A stretch of DNA of 63,522 nucleotides, the filler included, from Hausera hauseri (Eukaryota): NCBI GenBank assembly GCA_046269625.1. It is 11 parts of 11 records of this genome, joined end to end, with 100 filler letters (N's around TTAATTAATTAA, not from the genome) between each part and the next. Parts side by side here need not be neighbours in the genome. Positions count along the whole stretch, not along the records: positions 31,151 to 37,321 come from JBJURY010130872.1; 10 more parts are not named here. One strand, given 5' to 3'. A program made the position numbers and the translations under genes. Of this stretch, positions 1 to 40,670 are shown one piece after another; the stretch's first letter is position 1; every line of letters starts with the position of its first letter. The notes under the pieces were generated by a model. It made no database searches, had not been told where the DNA came from, and worked only from the letters and a program-made list of their open reading frames with translations.

Positions 1-1415
1 ATGCCAATTTTAAAGGCATCCTGGCATTCTGCTCGGGATATTATTATTGGCTCAAAAGGTGTTGTAGGCTCAATTATAGCCGAATTTCCCGAATAATAGG
101 CGCAATTAAACAGAAAAAACGATCTTTTCACGTAACATTCTCTAATTTTTATCTTTATAAACTCTGACTCTTGATATACCCAATATGTAAGGCCACTGGT
201 AGTTGTTAGTTGTTCTGGATCTGCTTCCGGACATTTCTCTAAATCAACTAGAGAATACTTTTGTCCTTCGCTAGGTTTTGAACAATCGTACGCTACTATA
301 CCTACGGCTTTAGGCATCAATAATGACGTTATTAATAGAATTTGTATAATTTCCATTATTGACATACCGGTTATACCTGATCGAGACGTAGTTGGTTGCA
401 TCCCAACTGGTCTATCTCTTTCTCGTTCTTCTGTTCTGGTTACATTTGTCGTCAGACTATTCAGCCATCCACCTCTACATTGAGCCCAATTTCCCAGGGT
501 ATCTTTCAGAATCTTCACAACTGTCTTTATATTTCGTTCGATTTCTTCTAGATTCTGAGTCTGATGGTTAATTACTATTATCTTATATAGCAAATAAGAT
601 ATAGCCGTTTGGGCCTTTTCCCGTGTGATGCCTGTGGCAAGCATTTTTTCCAAAATGTCTAATTCGTGCAACTCGTTTATCCTTTCTTCCTCCAGATTCT
701 CATAAAATTGTCTGCTTATTCGCAGCATACTATTACGTAATGTGTTAAATACTTCATCCGGAATTACTGCCTGCATGTCAAATGAGGCAAATGACGTGTG
801 CATCCTAGCCAGTAACGTTCTTAATAATGGATCTATGTCTACTGATTCTGGGGTACCATCTGTTCCTGCTAGTAATAAACGTCTTACTATTTCTTCATTT
901 CTATCTTTTTTATTGCGAATGTCGCTTATTTTTGTTCCTCTTGGCCTGCCTCTTCTCTTGGCGTCCGTTTGGACCGTAACGTCTTGTGTATCGCCCATAG
1001 GGTTTTCTACCTCATGTTGTTCCATTTCTCTTACGATTTCTTCCACTGTTGCTTGCGCTCTAGCCTCCGGATTTATTCCCGTTATATTTATCGGATTATA
1101 ATTCTCACTTCTGCATCCGATTCTCAATATTCTATCATATCCATATAGTGTCCTTCCATAGTAACTTAATCCATAAGGACTGGCTTGGTAAAATGGTTCC
1201 AGCTCCTCTATCCTTTCTCGTAAGGTTTGTATGTCATCGATTTCGTTCATCCGGATGACCCTCGTGTCTTGATTGCCTTCTTTTATCGTTATTCTGATAG
1301 CTTCGTTTCTTCCTTTCTCTTCTTCCGCAGCTTTGGCTAGTACAGTCCTAGCTATCTCTTTCACAGGACTGATGTCTTGGGCTAATAATACCAATTGGGG
1401 TAAAATTTCATTCAT
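1..1415 (-). CDS. Retroelement-type polyprotein (partial, runs off the window edge): Ubl-like domain + AT-hook + internal signal peptide + N-terminus of chuvirus-like class III fusion glycoprotein
   Basis: Hand translation gives a stop-free frame of ~470 codons, absent from the ORF track because it has no stop. Contains IRITIK..DDIQTLRERI..LSYYGRTL (Ubl pattern, ~1298-1080), KRRGRPRG (~959-936), hydrophobic MSIMEIIQILLITSLLMPKAVG (from 365), then IVAYDCSKPSEGQKYSLVDLEKC..ECYVKRS..IIEPTTP..C. Homologous to 40670-40320. Confidence 0.85.
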   Translation of the reverse strand, partial: MNEILPQLVLLAQDISPVKEIARTVLAKAAEEEKGRNEAIRITIKEGNQDTRVIRMNEIDDIQTLRERIEELEPFYQASPYGLSYYGRTLYGYDRILRIGCRSENYNPINITGINPEARAQATVEEIVREMEQHEVENPMGDTQDVTVQTDAKRRGRPRGTKISDIRNKKDRNEEIVRRLLLAGTDGTPESVDIDPLLRTLLARMHTSFASFDMQAVIPDEVFNTLRNSMLRISRQFYENLEEERINELHELDILEKMLATGITREKAQTAISYLLYKIIVINHQTQNLEEIERNIKTVVKILKDTLGNWAQCRGGWLNSLTTNVTRTEERERDRPVGMQPTTSRSGITGMSIMEIIQILLITSLLMPKAVGIVAYDCSKPSEGQKYSLVDLEKCPEADPEQLTTTSGLTYWVYQESEFIKIKIRECYVKRSFFLFNCAYYSGNSAIIEPTTPFEPIIISRAECQDAFKIG

Positions 1416-1443
1416 TCTTTCCGCCGTCACTTTACTAGTAATT

Positions 1444-2160
1444 ATCGATGTGCACTCATGTGCACTATCGATCGGCACATGTGCAAAATCGATTAATCGA
1501 TTACCCCGGGGGGGGAGAGGGACCGAACCGCCATTTCTACACTACTTATACAGATACACAAATGTGAAAAGTGCAAAAGTGCCATGGCAACGGTGCCCAA
1601 AGGCACCTCCACCTTGAGCATTTGCCGATCGGTAGTGCACCGCGTGCAATACCGACCTCTACATGTAACATGATAATTTTATCGATATTTCATTTTATAC
1701 CGGAAAGGCCTATGGGAAGTCTGCCTCACCTGGCATTGATTCGAAGTTTAATTGATGGATTTAAAATCTAATTGCACATTCACTTAGTGCATCGCGTTTG
1801 CACTCGATTGTAACCAGTGCCATGTGCTAACCATCAATATTGGAATTACCAGAAAACCGATATTATTGATTTTTGAACACTTGTACATGTGCAGTGCACC
1901 TGAAAAATGCACCGATCGATGTGCACTAATGTGCACATCGACTAGCACTTTGGCCCAATCGATTCGTGCAACTGTGTAATGAGCAACTATCGATTTGTGA
2001 AATGTGCAAAAATGTGATTAGCAGCGATGCCTAACGGCACCGTTGACTGGCACATTACAGATCGATAGTGCTTCAGGTGCACTACCGACTAGCACATGTG
2101 CAAAATTGATTTATTGATTACATCCCGAGGGTGGGGCAGAGTTCCAATTTTTCCCGTACT
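1444..2160. repeat. GTGCAC/ATCGAT palindrome-rich dispersed repeat (two ends, at 1546 and 2160); probable Polinton-type terminal repeat
   Basis: Aligns by eye with 9358-9535, 31151-32000 and 42181-42605. All copies end in ...TACT, which reads AGTA on the minus strand. Confidence 0.7.
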
Positions 2161-2405
2161 ATCCTCAGAGAACTTTGGATTCTCCGGTCTCTGAAGGTAT
2201 AGGAATTTTGGTGCATCCATTTGAACGTTTATAATTATTATATTGAAATTTTATTGATTTTAGTTTATTCTTAAATCACTGTTCTATTATGCATAGTGAT
2301 TGCCCGGTCCCACGCCCGGGGTGAAAAAATTAGAGGGACAGGAACTCTCCAACGATAAAACTTCTATTGCACTTATATTGTTGTGCATTTTCATAAATAT
2401 ATGCT

Positions 2406-2494
2406 GGTTCTGTTAATTGTAACGTTTATTGGCGCATAATCGATCGATGACGCAGTCGATAGGTAACTGCTTAGCTACTTATGACACCATCTAT
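2406..2494. mobile_element. Isolated terminal fragment (one TIR end) of the mariner family seen at 7310-8564
   Basis: Near-identical to 8476-8564 (gttaattgtaacgtttatt.gcgcataatc.atcgatgacgcagtcgataggtaactgc..). Confidence 0.85.
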
Positions 2495-2924
2495 AAATCA
2501 AATCGTTTACTATTTTAATTAAATTTAAAATTAAAAAGTTTTTAATTGTCATCCAAAAGAAGAATAATAAATTAAAACATTCAGTGACCTTCCAATGTTA
2601 AAAATCCTGATTTTCATGGATACTCACCTCTAAACTTGAAAAACTTGATAATTGTTACAAAAACACTACAATACTGTCTCAGCTTTAGCAGCAAGTAACA
2701 AGAAAGACTAATTCTTCAATAACTTTTATCTATTCACTAGATGGAAGCACTCTATAGGCCAGTAACTTCAATTTATAGTTTACATGCTGTATTAATGACT
2801 TGGCCAGTACTGTACATATTTGTTATCTGCACTTTTTACTTACTTTTGTCAATGAAACTGTTGATTTGAAAACATAAGGGTGGTTTAAAATATTGCTGAT
2901 ATCTATAATGCAATTCTTTAATAT

Positions 2925-3697
2925 GAAAAGTAATTAACGTTTCTACCATCGAATTCCAAAAGCCTGTGTAATCTATTAAACAACTTCTTATTTTATAAAA
3001 TATGTCCTATTCGCATCGATCACCTTCTGCCATCGGTCAACAAGGGAGTTCATGCCGCGTGAATAGAGGTCGGACTTTTTGGAAGCAAAAAACCGATCCA
3101 ATTCTATTTGTCGCGGGTCTTGTTTGCAATATGCGGTCGTGCGTTATCGTGGAGCAGTAGAATTCGTTTTCTGTTTTCCAATGAAGCTCGGGTTTCCAGC
3201 AAATTTTGGTGAGCTGTAGCAATCTGAACACAATAAACATCAGCAGAAATTGTCTGGCCTCGATGAAGATAATCCACATGGATGATTCCCCGTGAAGTCC
3301 ACACTTACGAATGTCTTCGTCTTTACATGCCTGGCCGTAATTCGTCTTCAAGGTTTTTATTTCAAGATTTAAAGCGACGAAACCAAAAACGTGCAACTTG
3401 GTCTGTAACAGAGTCTTCACTAAAAGCATTTCGTATTTTTCTTGCAGCTTCAGATGCTTTTAAACCATTTTTGTATTCATAAAGCAAGACAGTACGAATT
3501 TGAAAACTTGAATACGCCATTTGATGTTAAAAATAATCAATAATGAATTCGTGCTTTAGCTTGAACCTTTATTCTTTAAAACAAGCAAAACAAAAACTTT
3601 CGAAAACTACATAAAGTTTACATCATATTAATATGATTCCCCATTTTTAATGGTGTAACATGAAAAACGTTAATTAATTTTTTTCCGTTACCTGATA
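2925..3697 (-). mobile_element. Internally deleted mariner element (second family)
   Basis: N-terminal HTH (IRTVLLYEYKNGLKASEAARKI..WFRRFK) is joined to the catalytic part (GIIHVDYL..ILLLHDNARPH) and a C-terminal RWQKVI-like end. Partial TIRs (aaaa.taattaacgttt) at both ends. Confidence 0.8.
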
Positions 3698-9257: not shown

Positions 9258-9357
9258 NNNNNNNNNNNNNNNNNNNNNNNNNNNNNNNNNNNNNNNNNNN
9301 NTTAATTAATTAANNNNNNNNNNNNNNNNNNNNNNNNNNNNNNNNNNNNNNNNNNNN
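9258..9357. other. Artificial contig spacer N44-TTAATTAATTAA-N44 (also 15480-15579, 20462-20561, 25881-25980, 31051-31150, 37322-37421, 42081-42180, 48347-48446, 54305-54404, 59469-59568)
   Basis: Identical 100-bp linker occurring ten times, with stop codons in all six frames. Confidence 0.99.
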
Positions 9358-12148: not shown

Positions 12149-13699
12149 CTAGCTATTTACAATGGTGGTCAGATAGTTGAACACAAGTACAGTTGAACAC
12201 AGCAACAATTGAACACAAGTAAGTTGAACACAGCAACATTTGAACACAAGTACAGTTGAACACAGCAACAATTGAACACAAGTACAGTTAGCTATTTTTC
12301 TCAGATATTTCATATTATCCTGTTCATTGGCATATCCTAGAACAACAGACATTACCTTTCTCATCAATATCTCATACTTCTTCCTTTTTGGTTCTGGATT
12401 GCCAATCTCTGCATCAACCAATGTTTTGATGTGAATAGCCATGTCTTTCTTCAATCCCTCAAATAAATCCCACACACCAGGATGACTACAGTTGAACAGA
12501 GCCCTGAGAGAATTGTGGAATCCTTCACAGCAGTTTGTAGTTCTTTCTTGTCCAGCAGCAGCTGCTGCATGATGATTCCAGATTCTGACAGGAAACATCG
12601 GCTCTCTACCTGCATAGCCAGCAATGTAAGTGGAGCCAAAGTATGTGATCAGCTCATTGTATCTCTCATCATCTGGAAACTCAGCTGCCAGCTGATCAAA
12701 CAGTTCTCTCACATCATCCTGGGGGACAAATGCTAAAGCTGCCAGTGACTTCATCTTCAGTCTCATGGGGATCTGCTCTTGATCATCATAGACAGTTTTC
12801 AACCCCACATTTCCAATTTTTCTTAGAAGGCTTTGGCTAAGGTGGAAGTAGCAGCCTTTGATTTCTGCACCTGGAAAAGCTATTTGGGCAGCAGACATGC
12901 AAGCTTTTTCAAAATCCAGGAGAATTGTCTGTGGAGACAAGTTGGGCAGCAAGTGATTCAGGATTCTAAACATTCTGTTGTAAGTGTCTTGGGTTTTGTT
13001 CTGCAGGAGAAAGTAGATGCATGGAGGATAGGAGTTGCCATTCTTTGCATGCCAAGTGTAAAGCTGGTAGAACATCTTAGGGACTTTGTCAAAGGTTCCA
13101 TCCCCAAAGATTGTGTCTTTCTGAAGTTCCACCAAAAGATCTGGTTCACCAATTGCCAGAATTCTGTTAGGATCATCCTCTCCAGAATCATGAAGAATCA
13201 TGTGCATGTACTCTTCTGGAATTTTAAATTGTGCTGTGTCTGGATTTGGAGTATGATTTCCTCCTGCCTTCTTAACTCTGTTCAATTTTCTAGTGATTGA
13301 TGACTTTTTTGGCATATGGGCCTGAATTTCTTTGGATACCTGCATTTCATTAAGAACAGTTCCCATCACATTTCTTGGATTGGCACCCACAGACTTGATT
13401 TTGTCCACCATTTTCTGCACAACAGCATTGGCATTGATTACCTGTGGAAATGAATCATGGGAGTGGCCAGTGGGTTCAACAACAATGGCAGGAGTTTCAT
13501 CATCAGTAGTTTTCATTCGGGAATGGCATTTCTCTAATCTGTATTGCCTGCACCTCCATTGGACAATGCCATTGGTTGTTCTTTGTTGAATGTACTCATG
13601 GCCTTTGTAACCCACAACTTTCCCACCCCTTTTAGTAAAGTAAAATTGTGTCCAATGGTTGCTGTGTTCAACTGTACTTGTGTTCAACTGTCTGACCAC
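12149..13699 (-). CDS. FLYWCH-MULE transposase (open frame, start codon uncertain)
   Basis: FLYWCH zinc finger (TKRGG..Y..WRC..C..HSH), DGTF, LLDFE, GCYFH, RTTNCCEGFH catalytic motifs. No internal stop. Confidence 0.92.
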   Translation of the reverse strand: MVRQLNTSTVEHSNHWTQFYFTKRGGKVVGYKGHEYIQQRTTNGIVQWRCRQYRLEKCHSRMKTTDDETPAIVVEPTGHSHDSFPQVINANAVVQKMVDKIKSVGANPRNVMGTVLNEMQVSKEIQAHMPKKSSITRKLNRVKKAGGNHTPNPDTAQFKIPEEYMHMILHDSGEDDPNRILAIGEPDLLVELQKDTIFGDGTFDKVPKMFYQLYTWHAKNGNSYPPCIYFLLQNKTQDTYNRMFRILNHLLPNLSPQTILLDFEKACMSAAQIAFPGAEIKGCYFHLSQSLLRKIGNVGLKTVYDDQEQIPMRLKMKSLAALAFVPQDDVRELFDQLAAEFPDDERYNELITYFGSTYIAGYAGREPMFPVRIWNHHAAAAAGQERTTNCCEGFHNSLRALFNCSHPGVWDLFEGLKKDMAIHIKTLVDAEIGNPEPKRKKYEILMRKVMSVVLGYANEQDNMKYLRKIANCTCVQLLLCSTVLVFKCCCVQLTCVQLLLCSTVLVFNYLTTIVNS

Positions 13700-15579: not shown

Positions 15580-18500
15580 CCAATTGCCATTCTAAATTTT
15601 GTATTGTTAGGTAATATAGTTTCTTCCCCAATGTCCTTTAAATATCCTGGTTCCATGGGTGTTTCGACGGGTTTGGAATCATTTAAATTAAATCTGTCAA
15701 TAATTTCTTGTATTTTCACATTTTGATTTAATGCGAAGTGTCCTTGTTCAGTTTTCCTTATATTGATTCCAAGGTAATATCTGACGGGTCCTAGATCCTT
15801 AATCTCATATTCTTTACTTAGACTCTCAATCGTTTCTTTAATTTGAGATTCGCTACCGGCAATTAAGATGTCGTCTACATAAACAACAACATATATGGAA
15901 TTTTTGTCCTTTTTACTAAAGTATAAACATGGATCAGCTGTGCTTTGTGTGAAATTTAAATTTTTTAATGTTTGGCTAATCCTTGTCTGCCATGCTCTGG
16001 CGGCCTGTTTGAGTCCATATATGGCCTTCTGCAATTTGCAAACTTTGTTTTCCTTTCCTGGAACAACGTATCCCTCAGGTTGTGCCATGTATACATCTTC
16101 GTTCAGATTTCCATGTAGAAAGGCAGTCTTCACGTCAATGTGATTGACGTTCAAATTTTTATGGGCTGCGGTGGCAAGCAACGCCCTAATAGTTGTATGG
16201 GATACCACCGATGCGTAAGTTTCATCATAATCTTCACCGAATTTTTGTGAATAACCCTGAGCCACTAGTCGAGCCTTAAATTTTTCTATTTTGCCTTCGC
16301 TGTTATATTTGGATTTAAAAGTCCATTTACTACCTATGATTCTTTTTCCTTGCGGGAGATCTACGAGTGACCATGTGTTATTTTCCTTGAGAGAATTGAT
16401 CTCTTCTTGTGTGGCCTGAAGCCATTTTGATTTCTCATTTGGGTTCTGTAATTTTTGTATATCTGACCAGCTACGCGGTTCTTGTACGTGATCATTAACA
16501 TAATATATTAATCTATCTGGAGGAACTCCCTTATTTGATCTTAATGATCTTCTCGGCTCTTCATCAGCAGCACTTGTAGGTGTTGAATTTTCGCTGGTGT
16601 ATGATTCAGACAAGTCTATTTCAATTTCAGAATTTTGATGATTATTTGACTCTTCAAGAAATTTAACAGTTCTAGATATGATAATATTTTTATTCCCTGT
16701 GTAAATTCTATAGCCTTTAGAGTTAATGTCGTATCCAACGAAGATACCTGCTTGTCCCCTGTCATCTAGTTTAGATCTTTTAGTTTTGTCAACATAAGTG
16801 TAAACCTTGCATCCGAACAATTTTATATTCGATAAATTAGGCCTGTATTTTTCCCAAAGTTCAAATGGAGTTTTCTGGTTAGCCTTGGTAGGTAGTCGGT
16901 TCTGCAAGTAAGTGGCAGTGTGAATTGCCTCTCCCCAGAACTTGTGTTCAAGATTTGCTTCATTGAGGAGACATCGCGTCATTTCCATTAATGATCGGTT
17001 CTTACGTTCTGCTACACCGTTCTGAGGTGCGCTGTATGGAACGCTTAATTGATGGACAATTCCAAGAGATTTTAAATAGTCTACCATATCAGTATTAATG
17101 TATTCTCGACCATTATCAGTTCTGATAGCTTGCGGTACTTTACCGAATTTATTTTTTATCATAAGTACGTATTCCTTTAGTTTACTGAAGACTTCCGATT
17201 TATTTGATAAGAGAAATATAGTAGTATATCTACTAAAATCATCGATAAATGTCAAAAGATAGGTTTTCCCTCCAATTGTTGGGGTTTTTAGCGGTCCGCA
17301 TAAATCACTATGTATGAGTTCTAAGACTTTTGTAGCTCTGTGTTGAGCTTTATGAGGGTAAGGTTTACTTGTTAACTTGGATTTAGCGCATATCTCGCAA
17401 TCGAGATTATGTGTGCATTTGTTTATCTTTATACCTATGGCTAAATCTTCCCTAACCGTTTGCTTGATGGCTTCGTAGTCTCGATGACCTAATCTTTTAT
17501 GCCATATATCAATACAGTTTTCATTACTGCAGTGGTGGGCTAAATTCACGCAACCTGGAGGTTTATCGTTTTGGAAAGTCACCTGATATAAACCCTCTTT
17601 AATCTGTGCAGTTAAACAGATTTTTCCTGCGTATGTGAAATGGCAGTATTCCTTTTCAAAAGTCACTGTACACCCATTTTGAGTAGCTTTCTTCACCGAC
17701 AATAAATTTGTTTTAATATCTGGTACGTATAATACATCCTTTAGTGTAATTCTATTTGTTTCGTTATTTGGGGTCCTTTTTGTTAGTATTATTTCACCTG
17801 ATCCATAGGAAGTAAGCGTTTGTCCATTGGCAATTATAACTTCTGATTTATTTGTATTGTACACTTCGGAGAATAGATTTTTATCATTAGAAATGTGGGA
17901 TGAACTTCCACTGTCTATTATCCATACATTATTGCCTGGTCTTTCTGTGATAAATGCAAAATTATTCATTTCTTCGTTTAATTTTTCAACCTCCTTGGGG
18001 TTTACTTCCAGTGATTCATTACAAGGTGTGGTCCCTGTATTCATTTCCAAACATAGCGATGATTTATTTTCTGTTAATTTTGTTTTCATTTGTTGATTTG
18101 TACTTTTAAGGTGCCAGCAATTTTGTTTAGTATGATTTTTTCGTTTGCAATATGTGCAAAATTTGTCCGCCTTAGGATTAAAGTAATTTCGTTTGGTATT
18201 ATTGCCATGATAATTATTGTGATAGTTGTGATTTTGGAAATGTCTATTTTTGTTTATTTGAAATGCCTTCGTGGCGTCTTGTTGAGTGGCATTCTCAATT
18301 CGCCTAGAATATTCATCTATCAGTTTGCTTTTCAAAAAACTTGGATTGAGTTCCGACTCGGGTCTGGCCTCAAGAGCTGTAATAAGTGTATCATAAGATT
18401 TCGGCATAGAGCATAAGAGAAGAGCGGAGATGTGTGAGTCACTTATCACTTCCCCGATGGCGTTCAATTTATCTATAATTTCTAAAATTTTTGTTATGTG

Positions 18501-19714: not shown

Positions 19715-20461
19715 TCCCTCCTTGATCTCTGAAGGTGATGGTGTTGACGATAACTGCATGCTGGCTCGATGTCCAACGAAACAAGGTCTAGGTAAAGGCT
19801 TCGTGAGTACGTCGGCAATCATCTCGCTGCTGGGACAGTAATCGATATCAATGATCCCCTTCTCTTTCAGGTCTCTGATACAATGGAACTTTATGTCAAC
19901 GTGTTTGGTTCTAGATGTGTGCTTTGGTGATTCAATCATTTTAATTGAAGACTGATTATCCTCAAACAGTTTTATTGGCATATTTTGAGGCATGTCGAGA
20001 TCTTCTAATAGTCTTATTAACCACAAAATTTCTTGCGCTGCATTGGCAGCTGCCACATATTCAGCTTCGGCTGACGATAGTGCTACACAGTTCTGTTTTT
20101 TTGAAATCCAGTTAATGGGACTCTTTCCCAAAAGAAATAAGTTCCCAGAGGTAGATTTCCTATCATTTTTGTCACCTGCCCAGTCTGCATCACTATAGCA
20201 TGTTAATTTAGCATTTGATTCAGGATCTATGAGTAATTCATGATCAATTGTACTTTTCAAATATTTTATTACTCTTTTTGCTTGTTCCCAGTCTTTGCTT
20301 CTGGGCTTTTCATTTCGCCTGCTTAATATGTTTACCGCGGCAAGTATATCAGGACGAGTGATTGTGGCAACATATAATAATGCACCAATTGCCATTCTAA
20401 ATTTTGTATTGTTAGGTAATATAGTTTCTTCCCCAATGTCCTTTAAATATCCTGGTTCCAT
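19703..20461 (-). CDS. Copia Gag-Pol part 2 (RT end + RNase H); joined ORF ~1318 aa
   Basis: TRPDI, YSDADWAGD..RKSTSG, SSAEAEY, EDNQS, KHVDIKFH, ADVLTK. Confidence 0.97.
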   Translation of the reverse strand: MEPGYLKDIGEETILPNNTKFRMAIGALLYVATITRPDILAAVNILSRRNEKPRSKDWEQAKRVIKYLKSTIDHELLIDPESNAKLTCYSDADWAGDKNDRKSTSGNLFLLGKSPINWISKKQNCVALSSAEAEYVAAANAAQEILWLIRLLEDLDMPQNMPIKLFEDNQSSIKMIESPKHTSRTKHVDIKFHCIRDLKEKGIIDIDYCPSSEMIADVLTKPLPRPCFVGHRASMQLSSTPSPSEIKEGCWK

Positions 20462-26300: not shown

Positions 26301-27388
26301 ACCGGGCAGAGATAACGTATTTTCCTATATTTTGCAATTAAGAATGTTGGTCTTCAACACCGAATGGATATTAACAACACATCATCCAAGCGACAACAAA
26401 TAATTTTCCATCTTGAGTTTTGTTTTTTGATCGGTTATAATAACAAAAATGGAACTTCTTCAATTCCATAATTATACTGTCAATCAATGCAAACTTTAAC
26501 ATTTCAATTGGATTTTCAATTTCACGCTTGTCTGAATCCAATCGAATTTTGTAATTCTCGACTGATTTTAACATGAAATATAACGATAGTAACTTGGTCA
26601 AAATGAATCGAATTGCGACATTTGAACAGCCGTGGTGGGGTGTCGTGAACAAGAGCCGGATACCAAATTTTGTAATATTTTTTATACGTGTTTTAATTGC
26701 ACGATAACTCAGAAATACAAGTTGTAGCTTCTTTAAAACGTTTCAAATAAACTTTCGATGCTGGAAAAGTGTTTTGTTTTTACGGATTTCTCCAAAAGGA
26801 TTGAAATAAATAATACGTTACGGGTTGTAATGAATTGTACAAGTCCTATGAAACAAAATGACAATGATACGTGGTTGGTGCATCGGAATGTAACAGATGG
26901 TATTTCCGTGCACCAGAAAAACAGTTATCGGTTTTGATTATATAACCCTGATTCTTTATGTAAAAGGTGCTATCGAGAATTCAGATATACAAACTGCAAT
27001 CTACAATTGGTGTCAGGATCAAAAATCCTACGATTTGATTTGTCGGACTCCGGAATATGAATTTTCACCCACGATTTTTGCGGAAAATTGCAAACCTACA
27101 ATTTGGAACTATGTAGTGAGTTCGGTTTTTGTTTGTTCGATACCCTGCGGCTGTTATTTGTGTCGCAATTTACTTGTTGGGTTAAAATCGAGAGTTATAA
27201 AAAATCTAATCCTAAATTGTAAAAGAAACATTACCTTCGGATTGAGACGGACAACATTCACTGTAATTTATATGACATATTACAAATCGTTTTATTGCAA
27301 AACTTTATCAAATCATCCGGATTACGGTAAACATAATCGAAATAATAATTATATAGAAACTGAAGCCACGTTTTACCATTTAGTATGT

Positions 27389-29645
27389 ATGGATGCCAAA
27401 CTGATATCTGGAAAAGATGTTGCAAAAACGATTCGGGATGATTTGACAAAACGAATTTCACAAATTCAGTCATGTCAATCCGGCTTTCATCCATGCTTAG
27501 CGATTGTCCAGGTTGGTAATCGTGTAGTTTCCAATGTGTACATTCGACAAAAATTAACTAACGCGGATGAGTGTGGTATTAAAGCACGACACATCAAGCT
27601 ACATAACACTGCCACTGAAGATGAGATTTTGAAAGTTCTCGATAAACGGAACAGTGACAATAGTGTGCATGGAATTGTAGTGCAGCTACCGCTCGACTGT
27701 ACGAGTGTTGTTAATTCTAATTTCTACAAATTCCATTGCAGTGGAAAAAGATGTCAATGGGTTGAGTAAAAATTGCCGGTAAATTGGCACATGGGGAACT
27801 GATTTCATGTGTTGTCCCATGTACACCGAGAGGTTGTTTAGAGCTTATATCGCCTACCGGTTTAAGTAACCCAGGAAAACATGTTGTTTTAGGCCGATGT
27901 AAAATAGTTGGTCGACCAATGGCTTACCTGTTGTTATGGAGCCATGCAACAGTTACAGTTTGTCATTCGAGAACTAAAATATTACTAATAAAGTTAGTAG
28001 AGCTGATATTCCCCTGGTTGCCATTAACAAAGCACAGTTTGCGAAAGGTGACTGGATTAAGTCCGGATCGGTTATTATTGATTGCGGTATATTCACCAGT
28101 CCTGACTCAGATAACAAATTGGGGAAAAAACTTGTTGGTGATATTGAATTTGAAGTGGCTAAAACTCGTGCTGTTTAGATACCCCCAGTTTCCGGTGAAG
28201 TTGGGGCTATCACAGTGGCAATGCTACTAAAGAGTACTGTTGATAGTGGGGAGAGATTAATTGAAAGGAACCAGAACACAAATTTTACTAGTTTACCAAA
28301 CCCCTTAAAATTACAATCAAATGTGCCTTCGGATATCGGCATATCTCGGTCACAAAAACCGTAACCGATTTCCCAGATATCAAAGGAAATTGGCATTTTA
28401 CCCCACGAACTTGATTTATATGACGAAAGTAAAGCGAAAGTCAGTTAGGATATTTTATCACGACTGACGAATTGCAAGAATGGGAAATATGTACTTGTTA
28501 CTGGAATCAATCCAACACTATTCGGTGAGGGCAAAAGTATAACAGCAATAGGTCTGAGTCAAGCTTTATTCGAGTGTTTAAAAAAGAATGTTTTTGCATA
28601 CTGTAGACAACCGTCTCAAGATCCAACTTTCGGAATTAAAGGAGGTGCCGCAGGCGGCGGTTATTATCAAATTATTCCAATGTACGAATTTAATTTACAT
28701 TTAACGGGTGATATTCATGCAGTCACTGCTGCCAATAACTTACTGGTGGCTGCTATCGATGCTCGAATGTTTCACAAAAACACTGAAAGTGACACTGCTT
28801 TGTTCAGTCGTTTAGTCCCATCTGATCATACCGGTCATCGTAAATTGTGTGCAGTACAATTGGAAAGAATTCAAAAGTTGGGTATATCAAATACATACAT
28901 AATGACATGGGACGAAACGACAATTCGTCGATTTGCTCGACTTGATATTAATCCCAGTACGATTCAAGTCGAACGAGTTATTGATAATAACGATAGATTT
29001 TTACGAAAAATTACGATTGGAAAGTCTGCAACAGAAAAGGGTCATGAAAGAGATTGCCAGTCTGATCAAAGCGTTGCTAGTAAATTGATGGTCATATTAT
29101 CTCTGTCCACTAGTTTACAAGACATGCGACAACGTATTGGGCGATTTGTAGTCGGATTTAGTAAATCGGGGATCCAATTACAACAAGTAATTTGGGTGTT
29201 TGCGGTGCAATTACAGTTCTGATGAAAGAAACTATTAAACCCAACCTGATGAAATCCTCGGAAGGTGGTCCGGTAGTCGTTTATATCGGACCATTTGCTA
29301 ACATAGCACACGGAAATTCATTAAACATAGCTGATACGATTGCTCTTAAACTGGTAGGCGAGAATGGATATGTTTTGACTGAAGCCGGATTCGGTGCCGA
29401 TATTGGAGCAGCAAAGTTTCTTAATATTAAATACAGATCGTCTGGTCTCGTACCAAATGTTGCCGTTTTGATTGTATCGCTTCCAGCTCTTAAACTTCAT
29501 GGTGAAAATATCAAGAAACAAGGAGTCCTCATCGTCGTTGCTTTAAACAATTTCAAATACGATCATACGGAAGAAATCGAAGCAGTTTGTCGAATAGCAA
29601 TAGAAAACTGAGCGCACGATGCTGTTTTAGCTTCTCATAGGGCTC
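27389..29645 (+). pseudogene. MTHFD1: Trifunctional C1-tetrahydrofolate synthase pseudogene (FolD + FTHFS domains)
   Basis: [109 protein letters not shown]. Multiple frameshifts and stops, 3' truncated, intronless. Confidence 0.93.
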
Positions 29646-35124: not shown

Positions 35125-35809
35125 TGCTTGCTAGTGTTATGAGATGATGATGCAAATGAGAATATCACAGGTACAATATTAATAATGGTTAATGATTACT
35201 TGTATTAAGTAATAAATCATTTGTTTTATTTAACTTCCTGTTTTAGTGGAAAATCAAATTAAAAGAAAAGTGTTGATTGTTTATATATTTGTGAGAATTG
35301 CTCAAAGTTAGTAACTGTTTTTTATACTGAAAATATATGAATGTAATCGAATGAAGTCGACGTAAAACCTTTCTCCGAGGCCGCAAAATACCATTTTTCC
35401 TTTGGCCTTCGAAGCCACTGTTTCCCACACTTGTTTTATGGTTATTTTAATGTGTTTTCAAGTATATTTAGTAGGGGAAAAAGATGAGTCTGGAACAAGG
35501 ATAGGGGGTCCATCCACGCACCAATTGACCAATCACGTAATGCTCACATGCCGATTGGTCAATTCGACAACGGCGAGTTGAATGGTGCGGTCGGTTTTTG
35601 CGTGTTGCAAAAGACAGTCGGAAAATGCAAAAGAAAAAAACGAAGTTTTTCCAGAAGCAAATTTTTACCAGGGATGGATAGGAGAAAGTGTAGAGTAGAG
35701 TACGGGCGTTCGAATGATATGGGAAACATGGGCTTCGCAAGTTTGGGAAAAGGGGGAAAGCCGGTCAAAGAGAGGACAATGTAGGCGCCAATGGAAACGC
35801 AGGTGAATT

Positions 35810-36215
35810 TCAATGGACAACAATTTTTCCACTGATAAACACATTGGCACAAAGTGGGCGAAACGATGTAAGCCTCAGTGCAGGAAACAGTTCGGGTTCA
35901 TACGTACATTCAGCAGCGACCAATTGATAATTTGTACAGATTGATTGTTTGGTGGTAGTCTAACTGAGTCGTAACCGTTATTGATTGGATTTTGTCAATG
36001 ACAATTCCGAATGGTAGTAGTTTACTCTTACTGTTGTCAGCTGTGATTGGTTTGCGACAACCCATAATACGACACTTTCCCGATTGAAATGCGATGCATG
36101 TAAAATCCGGTGGACACTTGAGGACATACTGCCTCGGCTTCCATTGATTAAAAGGTAGTGCGTTAATGTCACACCACTCGGCAACATGTCCGCGATAGTT
36201 CATATTAGCTAACAT
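35810..36215 (-). pseudogene. Divergent TATA-binding-protein-like gene (one frameshift)
   Basis: Two TBP-like repeats: ANMNYRG..CIAFQSGKCRIMG and QSITVT..INLYKL/..TYEPELFPALRL..ANVFISGKIVV. Confidence 0.75.
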
Positions 36216-36310
36216 TATGGAAACAGTGTTTATACTATAGCTATTTATATGCGTGTAACGCGATTATAAACAAATCATGTGGTGAGGAAAGTTTGTTTTA
36301 CTATTATTAT

Positions 36311-36970
36311 ATGAAGCTGCAGAATGATGCCATGTTTCAGATTGTAGGCCCCAGTGGAAGTGGCAAAACACACTTTGTGTGTAAACTATTGCAGAACTAC
36401 CGTGACATGTTCCATAAATTGCGGTACAAACACATGTACTGGTATCAGAATGTTGGTGATGATGGTGAGTTTGGTTTGACACATCGGAAATTTTGTAATC
36501 TGAAATCCATAACGGTAATTGATGGGTTTGATGAGAACTGGTCAGAGATGTTCCGCAACGGTGAGGTTATTGTAACTGACGATTTATTTCAGGAAGCCTC
36601 GAAATAATCGGACTTTAAAAACCTGTTCACGAAGATTGCACGGCACCATGGTGTGACGGTTATTTTCCTTACGCAAAACATGTTCCATCAGGGTGGACAG
36701 CGTCGAACAAGAAATCTAAATGTACACTATTTAATGTTGTTCAAAAATCCCCGTGATCAAACTATCACTGATTATGTTGTACGACATGCAGTTCCTCACA
36801 ATCGAGCCTACTTAATAGATGCATATCATGATGCTACTACCGAACCACACGGATACTTGTTCATCGACTTTACACAACAGTATCCCGATGACATGCGTGT
36901 ACGAACAGACGTTTTCAATCAGAAAGGTGGTGTATGTGCCTATAAAAAATTCGAAAATCGACGACATGAT
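36311..36970 (+). pseudogene. A32-like genome-packaging ATPase of Polinton type (single in-frame TAA at 36605)
   Basis: Walker A IVGPSGSGKT, Walker B VIVTDDL, FTKIARH..VIFLTQN, NVHYLMLFKNPRD, PHGYLFIDF, RVRTDVF. Confidence 0.9.
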
Positions 36971-37205
36971 TATTATAAAAAAAACAAAATGAAGAATTTC
37001 CGAAAAACAAGTGTTAAACGTAAACCTACTACCAAGCGGGTGTCCGGCGGTAAGAAACGTGTATCAAAACGAACAACCGCTACAGTCAAGCGATTAATCA
37101 ATTGTGTGCTTCATCGGACAACAACACCAGCACCTAGACGCAAATTGCCGTCACAGTTGCAACCGTTATAAACAAATACGTCTCATCAACATCAATACGT
37201 CAAAA

Positions 37206-37321
37206 ATGCGATTCAAACGTAGTCAACCGTACTTTATTGCTTTACTCAAGGCACCTACGAGACATAAGCGAAACATGCTACGATCATTCCCGCAGTTTGT
37301 CGTGGACGATTTGATGGAAAT
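37206..37321 (+). CDS. Small Polinton-type ORF downstream of the ATPase (partial)
   Basis: MRFKRSQPYFIALLKAPTRHKRNMLRSFPQFVVDDLME resembles the short helical ORF typically following the Maverick ATPase. Preceded by a TATA motif. Confidence 0.5.
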
Positions 37322-37421
37322 NNNNNNNNNNNNNNNNNNNNNNNNNNNNNNNNNNNNNNNNNNNNTTAATTAATTAANNNNNNNNNNNNNNNNNNNNNNN
37401 NNNNNNNNNNNNNNNNNNNNN

Positions 37422-38879: not shown

Positions 38880-40670
38880 GAACGGTGTGATAATTGCGGT
38901 TAAAATCTTTCAAGAAAATCCTGTTAGCGTGAATATTTTGTATCAATTTATAACCGCTTGGATTACCGCTGTTACTAGTTATACCAAGAAATAGATTGCT
39001 AAAAATCCAAATTCGGCTTGTCCAAAGATTAAAAATCTCCCCCATATTTTATAGAGTATTTCTGTGGTTACTTATTGGTAATGGTTTGCACCAAGTAAGG
39101 ATTCCCATTTAGCCTGATATCGAGTATCGCCAACTACTAATGCCATAGCTCCATTTAATTCGTGTGTTCTTTGTCATGAAACAGCAAGGAATTGTCGAAA
39201 AGCTTTGATTTCTTTAGGCCTGTAAATACCTTTTTGAGGTGTATCCTGAAAATTGCCATCGGTAATTCCTTTTGCTAAATTAGTTCCAGTTAGTTTTTTA
39301 GGAATGATAGTGACACCTCCATTGGGTAAGCTAACCCAATCCGTTTCGCTACGTCTGAACATTGATTTATCCAAACTTGCCTTACAATCCTTTAGGATGG
39401 TGGGTTGTGTTGCGGTATCTAGCAATACCCTGGTGAGGGGCATGGCTAAGCGTGGAGTGTTTCGATAGATCACATCGTTTTTCTTCAACGTTAAGTGGTA
39501 CGTCTCTTTTCTCGCACTCATATGTTAGTATAACTTCGCCAGTGACTCGGCCAAAGATTCCTTCTCTCATGGGAATAATCGGTGAGGCTAACTCAGGGTT
39601 TGCATAAATGAGAGCTAATTTTGTCCTCATAATCTCCGTATCCAATTTGCAATCATTAGTTATCATTTTATGGTATAACTCGGCTATTCCGACGTCCTTT
39701 ATAATAGAAGTAATCGTCTCGGTTTTTCATGTAATCTTTGATTCGAATGTCTTGCGTTTCTAAATTGTATGTTTTCGCGTTTATCTCCGTTTCTGCGACG
39801 AAGAACGCTTCATAGTTAGTAGTGAACATTACTACTTCACAACGTAAAATCATCTCCTTTTTTATGAATTTCAACCAATGTTGATCATAGATTAATATCG
39901 TAGGTGTATGATGCTCTGATACGTCTTCATGTGCTCTCAAACTGATGTCGGATTTGTCTACGTATCTTTTCCGGTAGTTTCATTAAATTTCAGTTCCTTA
40001 ATCTTAATAAAATTACAGTCTTTTCCAGCGGGCGGTTCCCATACGACGACAGAACTTTTGAAAGCACAGGTTCCGTCCTGCATATGACATTTTTGGTTCT
40101 CGGTATGTAGCTTAGTGACGCTATGGAACATCACTTTTTGGACTCGCATTTCCGATTCGTAAAAGTCGACTACTACTAAGTTCGCTTTCAATCCTTTTCC
40201 GGTGTCGTATACTGCTCCATTACATTGCCAATTATGCATATCTAACCTTCCGACTACTATTTTATGTACTCTAGTTATTTTCCCGGGCTGCATTTCTAGT
40301 TCCATAATTTCCCAATTCAGTCTTCAAGTCTCTCGGGCCTGCATGCAGTGTTGTCTTTCCAGATTCATTGGAATTGGGGGGGTGGTTGGTTTGATTATCG
40401 AGGAATGTCCGTGCATTAGTCCAAAGTGAAAAATAATACGAGATCGTCTCAGCATACACTCCATGCTGTCAAAAGATATCAACTCTTATTGCTGATATAG
40501 GAAATAACTCTTCTCCTTTGTTTCCATTTTATGTGGTCTGGCATCTTTACATGTTTCTAAGTCAATTAGTGAGTATTTTTGTCCAAGTTTAAATCTATCG
40601 CAATCTTAGACGGTGAAGGAGCCCACCTGTATTATCAGCATCATTATGGTGAACAAACTAACTAACCAAT
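38880..40670 (-). pseudogene. Chuvirus-like (Monjiviricetes/class III) fusion glycoprotein
   Basis: *DC..GQKYSLIDLETC, C...DGTC....VVW, KLALIYANP..GIFGRVTGEVI..C, PLTRVL, GIY..EI, WGRFLIFG..AIYFLV..IN, GFS*KILTA. Confidence 0.85.

Follow-up and report, generated by a model that had tools for sequence, protein, structure and literature searches.

ORF24 of KSHV, one of the beta- and gammaherpesvirus mimics of TATA-binding protein (TBP), carries polar changes at positions V122, T124, V161, and L205 and reads the motif TATTWAA (excerpts of PMC12529657). The consensus for TATA boxes is TATA[A/T]A[A/T][A/G] (excerpt of PMC5703507). Stirrup-type glutamates of TBP contact TFIIB and are ~40% conserved in other viral TBPs, and contacts to TFIIA, TAF1, Mot1, and Brf map to the TBP N-lobe, largely to helix 2 (excerpts of PMC7221094). 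For Polintons, TBP is absent from the core genes listed in excerpts of PMC10748475 and PMC11161782, in agreement with an earlier note on this DNA, which held that TBP is not a canonical Polinton core gene. The label "TBP" is given to a gene in MELD virus and adintovirus figure legends (PMC8502044, Fig. 5; 10.1101/697771, Fig. 5 and 6; both in excerpt), and in the excerpted literature on a Polinton TBP such figure-legend labels are all that was found. The accessible parts of the supplements of PMC8502044, PMC11131425, and PMC10748475 hold nothing on a Polinton TBP, and excerpts of PMC12220804 and 10.64898/2026.10.13.758929 nothing relevant to a Polinton TBP or promoter. Across the literature searched, which lay outside bioRxiv supplements, subscription papers, and Repbase, the family, linkage, and box reported here are undescribed, and a search for TBP binding to TATAAAC returned no report. 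Gene control in animal Polintons is thus essentially unstudied, with no promoter or transcription factor in the literature searched.

In this study, we analyzed a 63.5-kb stretch of DNA (the window) composed of 11 contigs of 4 to 9 kb each, joined by N-linkers and not representing one locus. Our best reading is that positions 35810 to 37321 are what remains, in the genome of an animal, of a decayed Polinton-like element, known here from the ~1.5 kb present on its contig. The fragment forms the right end of the contig at 31151-37321 and ends with it at 37321; the linker that follows at 37322-37421 (44 N, 12-nt spacer, 44 N; unstranded) marks the contig boundary, beyond which there is no physical linkage rightward. 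It is one of ten identical linkers, located at 9258-9357 and nine more places, that join unlinked contigs end to end in the window, so that long-range gene order in it is meaningless. The copy at 35810-37321 is a dead fossil with a frameshift, a truncation, and an in-frame stop. On the contig, where only the first 116 nt of the third ORF are present, no Pfam match to a protein-primed PolB or an rve integrase was obtained, and the integrases elsewhere in the window are retroelement genes on other contigs. Likewise, no major or minor capsid protein or maturation protease was detected among the 122 window proteins scanned against Pfam, the contig being truncated. As to terminal inverted repeats and a target-site duplication, a single flank of the element is present, and a search of the window found no second copy of 35150-37321.

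The remainder of the window consists of mariner, MULE, copia, and gypsy-type debris plus a few host genes. To the left of the fragment lie decayed transposase-like frames, which we take to be hAT, with a weak Spin-doc zinc-finger match (E 0.034). Between these and the truncated TBP-like gene, 18-nt inverted arms stand 292 nt apart at 35410-35737; within them, at 35523-35564, lies an inverted pair of 12 nt that is perfect and contains CCAAT. The arms could be element terminus sequence or a small insertion. A candidate element terminus lies near 35470. Other contigs carry an NDUFB10 fragment, whose best PDB matches are 8esw and 8b9z (presumably Drosophila complex I) and make an invertebrate the likely host, C1-tetrahydrofolate synthase domains (dehydrogenase/cyclohydrolase and formyl-THF ligase) spread over four frames at 26894-29611 (+), and 16-nt tandem repeats at 12177-12300 that end an intact 517-amino-acid (aa) FLYWCH-MULE transposase ORF. 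Matches to a Monjiviricetes fusion glycoprotein family at 3-1541 (-) and 39385-39726 (-) are probably envelope genes of a retrotransposon, because their contigs share a repeat family with LTR-retroelement pieces. Two neighboring contigs probably overlap: their ends, within a copia reverse transcriptase, have 77 identical bases in common (15580-15656 and 20385-20461).

The fragment encodes a TBP-like gene on the minus strand (35813-36215) and, divergent from it, an A32/FtsK-type genome-packaging ATPase on the plus strand (36311-36958). The head-to-head arrangement across less than 100 bp claimed in the earlier note is correct: the ATG codons at 36215 and 36311 are separated by 95 nt. The TBP-like gene is broken by a frameshift near 35925, and a stop at 35810-35812 cuts it short of the helix that ends the family's proteins; read with an X at the frameshift, it yields 134 aa and is without the last 25 to 35 codons, tblastn spanning residues 1 to 124 of the 149 to 160 in relatives. 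The missing tail was sought across the rest of the window and not found; a candidate at 35310-35400, picked by eye, fell outside the top 12 family-profile matches and was rejected. The peptides YEPELFPAL, FISGKIVV, and FQSGKCRIMG, named earlier as marks of the gene, are all on the minus strand, spread over two frames. The ATPase, interrupted by an in-frame stop at 36605-36607, scores 26 bits against Pfam Pox_A32 (cutoff, 22.8), is 76 to 77% identical to intact relatives of 215 to 216 aa, and continues in frame into a basic ORF of 60 aa with 32% K+R (36989-37171, +). This ORF has no Pfam or NCBIfam match; from its composition only, it is a candidate DNA-condensing core protein. The start of a further ORF (37206-37321, +) is cut by the contig end. 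Its N terminus matches, at 6.0 to 6.5 bits, a profile of 143 relatives of the basic protein from the distant element L001 described below, a weak match (rank 2 of 1,001 against shuffles; E 0.97 window-wide), and neither BLASTP nor the ESM Atlas returned a match. It is possibly a small pX/Cupiennin-like virion protein like that after the L001 ATPase. The ATPase is the only firmly identified virion-module gene on the fragment.

The TBP-like protein belongs to a large family. The window copy matches Pfam PF00352 (TBP) at E 1.7e-10 and 41 bits (gathering score, 22.9), and an intact relative reaches 62.9 bits in one stretch only. Two intact relatives are 77% and 71% identical to the window protein, and 78 of 79 candidates proved to be relatives, at 32 to 77% identity. 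A family profile gave 721 matches at E 1e-5 or better among 8,000 scored, 120 of them listed; the weaker of the 721 may include cellular TBPs. Median family length is 152 aa. In the ESM Atlas, the hits were TBP clusters only, almost without taxonomy, and tblastn against 50,697 phage records gave no match.

Fold analysis had been named beforehand as a check on the TBP assignment, and Pfam, Foldseek, and alignment to yeast TBP all give TBP. The model of the X-read window protein (pLDDT 89.5) has 44 Foldseek matches in the PDB at E 0.001 or better, TBP throughout the matches listed, with 20 to 25% identity to these solved cellular TBPs. An intact relative (pLDDT 96) aligns with yeast TBP 66-240 over 148 of 149 residues (Z 13.7, rmsd 2.8), compared with Z 6.8 for the next unrelated fold. 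The models thus give the family the two-lobed TBP saddle fold. In the pLDDT-96 model, lobe 1 consists of strands only, without a helix of at least 4 residues before residue 84, and by this model both N-lobe helices (H1 and H2) of canonical TBP are absent from the family. The two-repeat TBP proposed from the sequence therefore holds as to the presence of both lobes, but a lobe 1 stripped of helices does not make an ordinary two-repeat TBP.

Residues were counted in 139 relatives, with lobe-2 numbering anchored on the 1rm1 alignment and lobe-1 and stirrup numbering partly taken over from yeast TBP or assigned by eye. Equivalents of the intercalating yeast phenylalanines F116, F190, and F207 are retained in 139, 138, and 138 relatives, and the fourth, F99, is seemingly lost (mostly K, P, or S; mapping by eye). 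The equivalent of N69 is kept in 135. On the DNA face, V71 is replaced by N (136 of 139), V122 by R (138), T124 by M (139), N159 by S (136), I194 by R (138), and L205 by N (all 139). The near-invariance of these polar or otherwise changed residues, together with the three kept phenylalanines, supports our best reading and suggests that the DNA face is under selection. The C-lobe stirrup reads E-x-E, the first position being E in 135 and D in 4 relatives and the second E in all 139; by yeast numbering, we take these to be the glutamates C.L3.2 and C.L3.4 of the TBP literature. The family would thus retain the predicted TFIIB-docking surface without the N-lobe regulator surface. By fold the protein is a TBP, yet it departs from canonical cellular TBP in phenylalanines, asparagines, hydrophobic face, and helices.

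Linkage of the TBP-like gene to the ATPase in other copies was assessed by comparing 151 TBP matches with the 120 listed of 268 ATPase matches for same-source contigs of identical length in bp. Among the matches listed, 18 exact pairs were obtained (null, 1.6), 11 of at least 2 kb (null, 0.34), and 9 of at least 4 kb (null, 0.065; 25 TBP and 33 ATPase rows). Such size matches demonstrate co-occurrence, not adjacency; one match of 1,130 bp leaves 32 nt to spare, which forces adjacency if the match is real. TBP and ATPase distances are correlated in a Mantel test (rho 0.575; 23 of 10,000 permutations; 12 pairs), more weakly when three short-contig pairs are added (rho 0.317; 377 of 10,000; 15 pairs); four matches were left out, two (907 and 955 bp) for being too short for both genes and two in which a single ATPase was paired with two TBPs. 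The 11 linked ATPases are distributed across the sampled tree, as their most recent common ancestor with the window copy contains 120 of 121 leaves among the matches listed. Contigs of 14 to 20 kb exist among the linked relatives. These data support, indirectly, that the TBP-like family travels with this ATPase clade.

A scan of GTDB yielded one locus out of 10 candidate stretches, contig JAJRUL010000009.1 (positions 1-3352, 3.35 kb; here L001), which sits in a bacterial (Zixiibacteriota) metagenome-assembled genome (MAG) and is probably mis-binned there. This Polinton-like fragment encodes a full two-repeat TBP divergent from an ATPase that is 27% identical to the window ATPase, at a spacing of 1.3 kb, and the ATPase is followed by a 110-aa basic protein with an end that we take to be pX-like. 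The L001 TBP is near-canonical, with the canonical Phe and Asn residues kept, and canonical TATAAAAG boxes precede both the ATPase and the next gene; L001 may belong to a second viral lineage of TBP that is less derived. Between its ATPase and TBP gene, AT-rich repeats of ~30 nt and a short run of TTAGGC-type hexamers (1698-2053) look like a terminus or origin region, adjoined by a 160-aa ORF without a Pfam match. The predicted linkage in other copies is thus backed indirectly by size matches and the Mantel test, and was read directly in one distant element.

We also examined the sequences upstream of the four ORFs in the window copy. The 63.5-kb window contains the 12-mer TTATAAACAAAT at two places and no others, 36264-36275 (+) and 37166-37177 (+), its first base lying 47 nt before the ATPase ATG at 36311 and 40 nt before the ATG at 37206, as had been reported; its TATAAA starts 46 and 39 nt before these ATGs, and the second copy overlaps the stop codon of the basic ORF. 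Ahead of the basic ORF, where TATAAA had been noted, it stands at two places: at 36941, 48 nt from the ATG, and at 36974, 15 nt from it. The former (36941-36949, +) lies within the last ATPase codons, where relatives encode YKQ, and departs from the motif at position 7. Ahead of the TBP-like gene, ATATAAATAG was recovered at 36250 on the minus strand (36241-36250), 34 nt before the ATG; this canonical-type TATA box is a candidate host-TBP (early) promoter of the gene. The 8-mer TATAAACA, which violates the TATA consensus at position 7, is found, at a site that the earlier note does not mention, at 36227-36234 (-), 19 nt before the same ATG, which leaves too little room for normal initiation upstream of it; one might speculate that it is an autoregulatory site. 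Each of the four ORFs therefore has a TATAAA 34 to 48 nt before its ATG (34 for the TBP-like gene, 46 for the ATPase, 48 for the basic ORF, and 39 for the ORF at 37206), with two further copies closer, at 19 and 15 nt. The claim of a shared motif before virion-module genes stands as to the 12-mer positions and goes too far as to the genes, of which only the ATPase is firmly virion module.

Chance occurrence was estimated with 2,000 dinucleotide shuffles of 35810-37321. TATAAA was observed 6 times against 1.34 expected (7 of 2,000 shuffles reach 6), and TATAAACA, which was chosen for testing after it had been seen, 3 times against 0.14 (1 of 2,000). A repeated 12-mer containing TATAAA appeared in 3 shuffles, but any repeated 12-mer in 226, hence repetition as such is not rare. 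Window-wide, TATAAACA occurs 9 times against 4.8 expected (4 of 100 shuffles reach 9), 6 of these outside 35810-37321. One, at 35278-35285 (-), lies ~150 nt before the decayed transposase-like frames and is probably unrelated.

In relatives, the motif was followed through protein sequences. TATAAACA or TATAAACAA read in frame gives YKQ, and YKQ ends 110 of the 120 related ATPases listed (of 268), a median of 2 residues before the stop, at exactly the position that the TATA box of the next ORF occupies in the window copy. After YKQ, residues of differing chemistry are found (S, N, stop, K, T, I, or C; 12 stops). Codons, as inferred from protein and in related sequences that are not independent, start with G or C at this position in 10 of 110 cases, compared with 90 of 221 (41%) further along the tail among the matches listed, a sign of constraint at the DNA level, although with such non-independence the binomial P is an overstatement. 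Conservation of 90% is likewise reached by 97 of 208 ATPase columns, so YKQ could be a protein constraint. Gene calls running upstream of the true start offer a noncoding view. Among such ATPase read-throughs, 2 of 7 contain YKQ, at 33 and 36 nt (expected, 0.01 to 0.02), and all 5 that are long enough are compatible with TATAAA at 33 to 43 nt; P0220 and P0268 are parsing artifacts, and with both rows the count is 5 of 7 (null mean, 0.9). For the TBP-like gene, 7 of 9 read-throughs are compatible with TATAAA (null, 1.4); three of the 7 exclude C at position 7, and none requires it. The motif thus appears, as read from protein sequences only, to be conserved at promoter distance in relatives, with C at position 7 seemingly fixed across the clade. 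Examination of fold, ATPase linkage, and motif, the three points on which the earlier interpretation was said to depend, did not refute it, and the interpretation is supported in part.

We consider it somewhat probable that the element encodes a TBP of altered specificity that recruits host TFIIB and RNA polymerase II (Pol II) to virion-gene promoters. According to this model, the clade encodes a minimal TBP of ~150 aa, divergent from the virion module, whose gene would be fired early by host TBP from its canonical TATA box. The viral TBP would then bind TATAAACA(A/G)(A/T) boxes 33 to 48 nt before virion-module ATGs, boxes that would often sit inside the 3' end of the preceding gene. The retained lobe-2 glutamates may dock host TFIIB and thereby bring in Pol II, and loss of the lobe-1 helices would allow escape from TAF1, Mot1/BTAF1, and TFIIA. 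Redirection of TFIIB and Pol II is the simplest account of an altered DNA face, a kept stirrup, lost lobe-1 helices, and a box taken together; from these we infer DNA binding, TFIIB binding, activation, and late timing of the virion genes. The broader proposal, of a large Polinton-like clade with a one-protein late switch in which a helix-less TBP reads TATAAACA rather than the host TATA and joins TFIIB and Pol II, is plausible but tentative. Several points count against the model: TATAAA at such spacing is expected of any host Pol II promoter; TATAAACA also precedes the TBP-like gene in the window copy, whose ATPase-embedded box departs from the motif at position 7; one of the four intercalating phenylalanines is seemingly lost; YKQ could be a protein constraint; the Mantel correlation weakens with the short-contig pairs; and the co-divergence contrast depends on one contig, L001.

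The boxes might instead be read by host TBP, with the viral protein serving as a TFIIB decoy that dampens transcription of the host or of early genes, or as a DNA bender at the termini in replication or packaging. The near-invariant TFIIB-docking glutamates would fit such a role, as would the changes in several TATA-contacting residues and one Phe, and the TATAAACA 19 nt before the gene's own ATG would suit repression; host TBP has, moreover, been crystallized on a C(-25) variant box (PDB 1qn3, in extract). We nevertheless regard this as unlikely, as an apparently fixed C at position 7 is disfavored for a host-TBP promoter (consensus in an excerpt of PMC5703507) and near-invariant changes on the DNA face are needless for a pure decoy. 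Quite improbable, in our view, is that the TBP-like gene, though linked, is not the reader and that TATAAACAA combines a TATA box with a site for a host forkhead (FOX) factor, tying virion genes to host tissue. ATAAACA is the forkhead core, and the six copies of TATAAACA outside 35810-37321 would agree with this; against it, a fixed 33 to 48 nt to the ATG is core-promoter geometry, and L001, with a canonical TBP, has canonical boxes, albeit as one case only.

It would also be conceivable that YKQ is kept for the ATPase protein and that the 12-mer repeat is an AT-rich coincidence, leaving a real TBP-like gene without a cognate motif. The 226 of 2,000 shuffles with some repeated 12-mer and the many equally conserved ATPase columns speak for this, but the same reading recurs in the noncoding upstream read-throughs, and the residue after YKQ is mixed, with 12 stops, yet constrained in its first codon base; we give the idea little credence. 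A host TBP pseudogene fallen by chance beside an element fragment is largely refuted and scarcely credible. Although the window copy is broken and lies amid other transposon debris, it is 20 to 25% identical to solved cellular TBPs versus 71 to 77% to intact relatives, a range that parallels the 76 to 77% of the ATPase, and the linkage is repeated.

If the broader proposal of a one-protein late switch is true, L001 would represent the starting state of protein-promoter co-divergence. TBP and promoter would then form an orthogonal pair with an evolutionary origin separate from that of herpesviruses, and virion genes would be timed by the elements themselves without a helper virus. Should the elements have a TBP dedicated to a box of their own, this would offer a first concrete way into an early/late programme and would support the view of these elements as autonomous nuclear viruses over that of plain transposons. 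As predicted from residue patterns, the family could be a minimal TBP, made by nature, in which TFIIB docking is uncoupled from regulation by TAF1, Mot1, and TFIIA. One small protein and a single 9-mer would then suffice to test directly how TBP surface and box co-evolve.

Among known systems, Polintons/Mavericks (Polintoviricetes) resemble the fragment in having an A32/FtsK-type ATPase followed by small basic proteins (excerpts of PMC10748475 and PMC11161782), and the fragment lies in an animal assembly among transposons; it differs in that no polymerase, integrase, capsid, protease, or termini were identified on the window contig, which ends at 37321. With MELD viruses and adintoviruses, the likeness is that this broad group already includes at least one virus with an annotated TBP-like gene; the excerpted legends give the abbreviation without structure, linkage, or promoter, so the comparison is by label alone.

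TBP-like proteins of giant viruses and poxviruses share the two lobes, a kept L5.1-type Phe, and a lost eukaryotic N-lobe signature (excerpts of PMC7221094). They are mostly without the TFIIB glutamates and are paired with a TFIIB of their own (same excerpts), whereas in the window family the glutamates are near-invariant and both lobe-1 helices are lost; identity to BFVD matches is 22% or less. If our model holds, the window family would act as a viral TBP mimic. KSHV ORF24 likewise is virus encoded and has the TBP fold, its DNA face is more polar, with polar swaps coinciding with several of the family's DNA-face positions, and it has a near-TATA motif before virion genes and uses host Pol II (excerpts of PMC12529657). 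In contrast to the window family, it is a protein of 752 aa that binds Pol II directly, acts in a complex of six proteins, and by modelling is incompatible with TFIIB (same excerpts). The window family, at ~150 aa, has kept the TFIIB stirrup; its motif deviates at position 7 and that of ORF24 at position 4.
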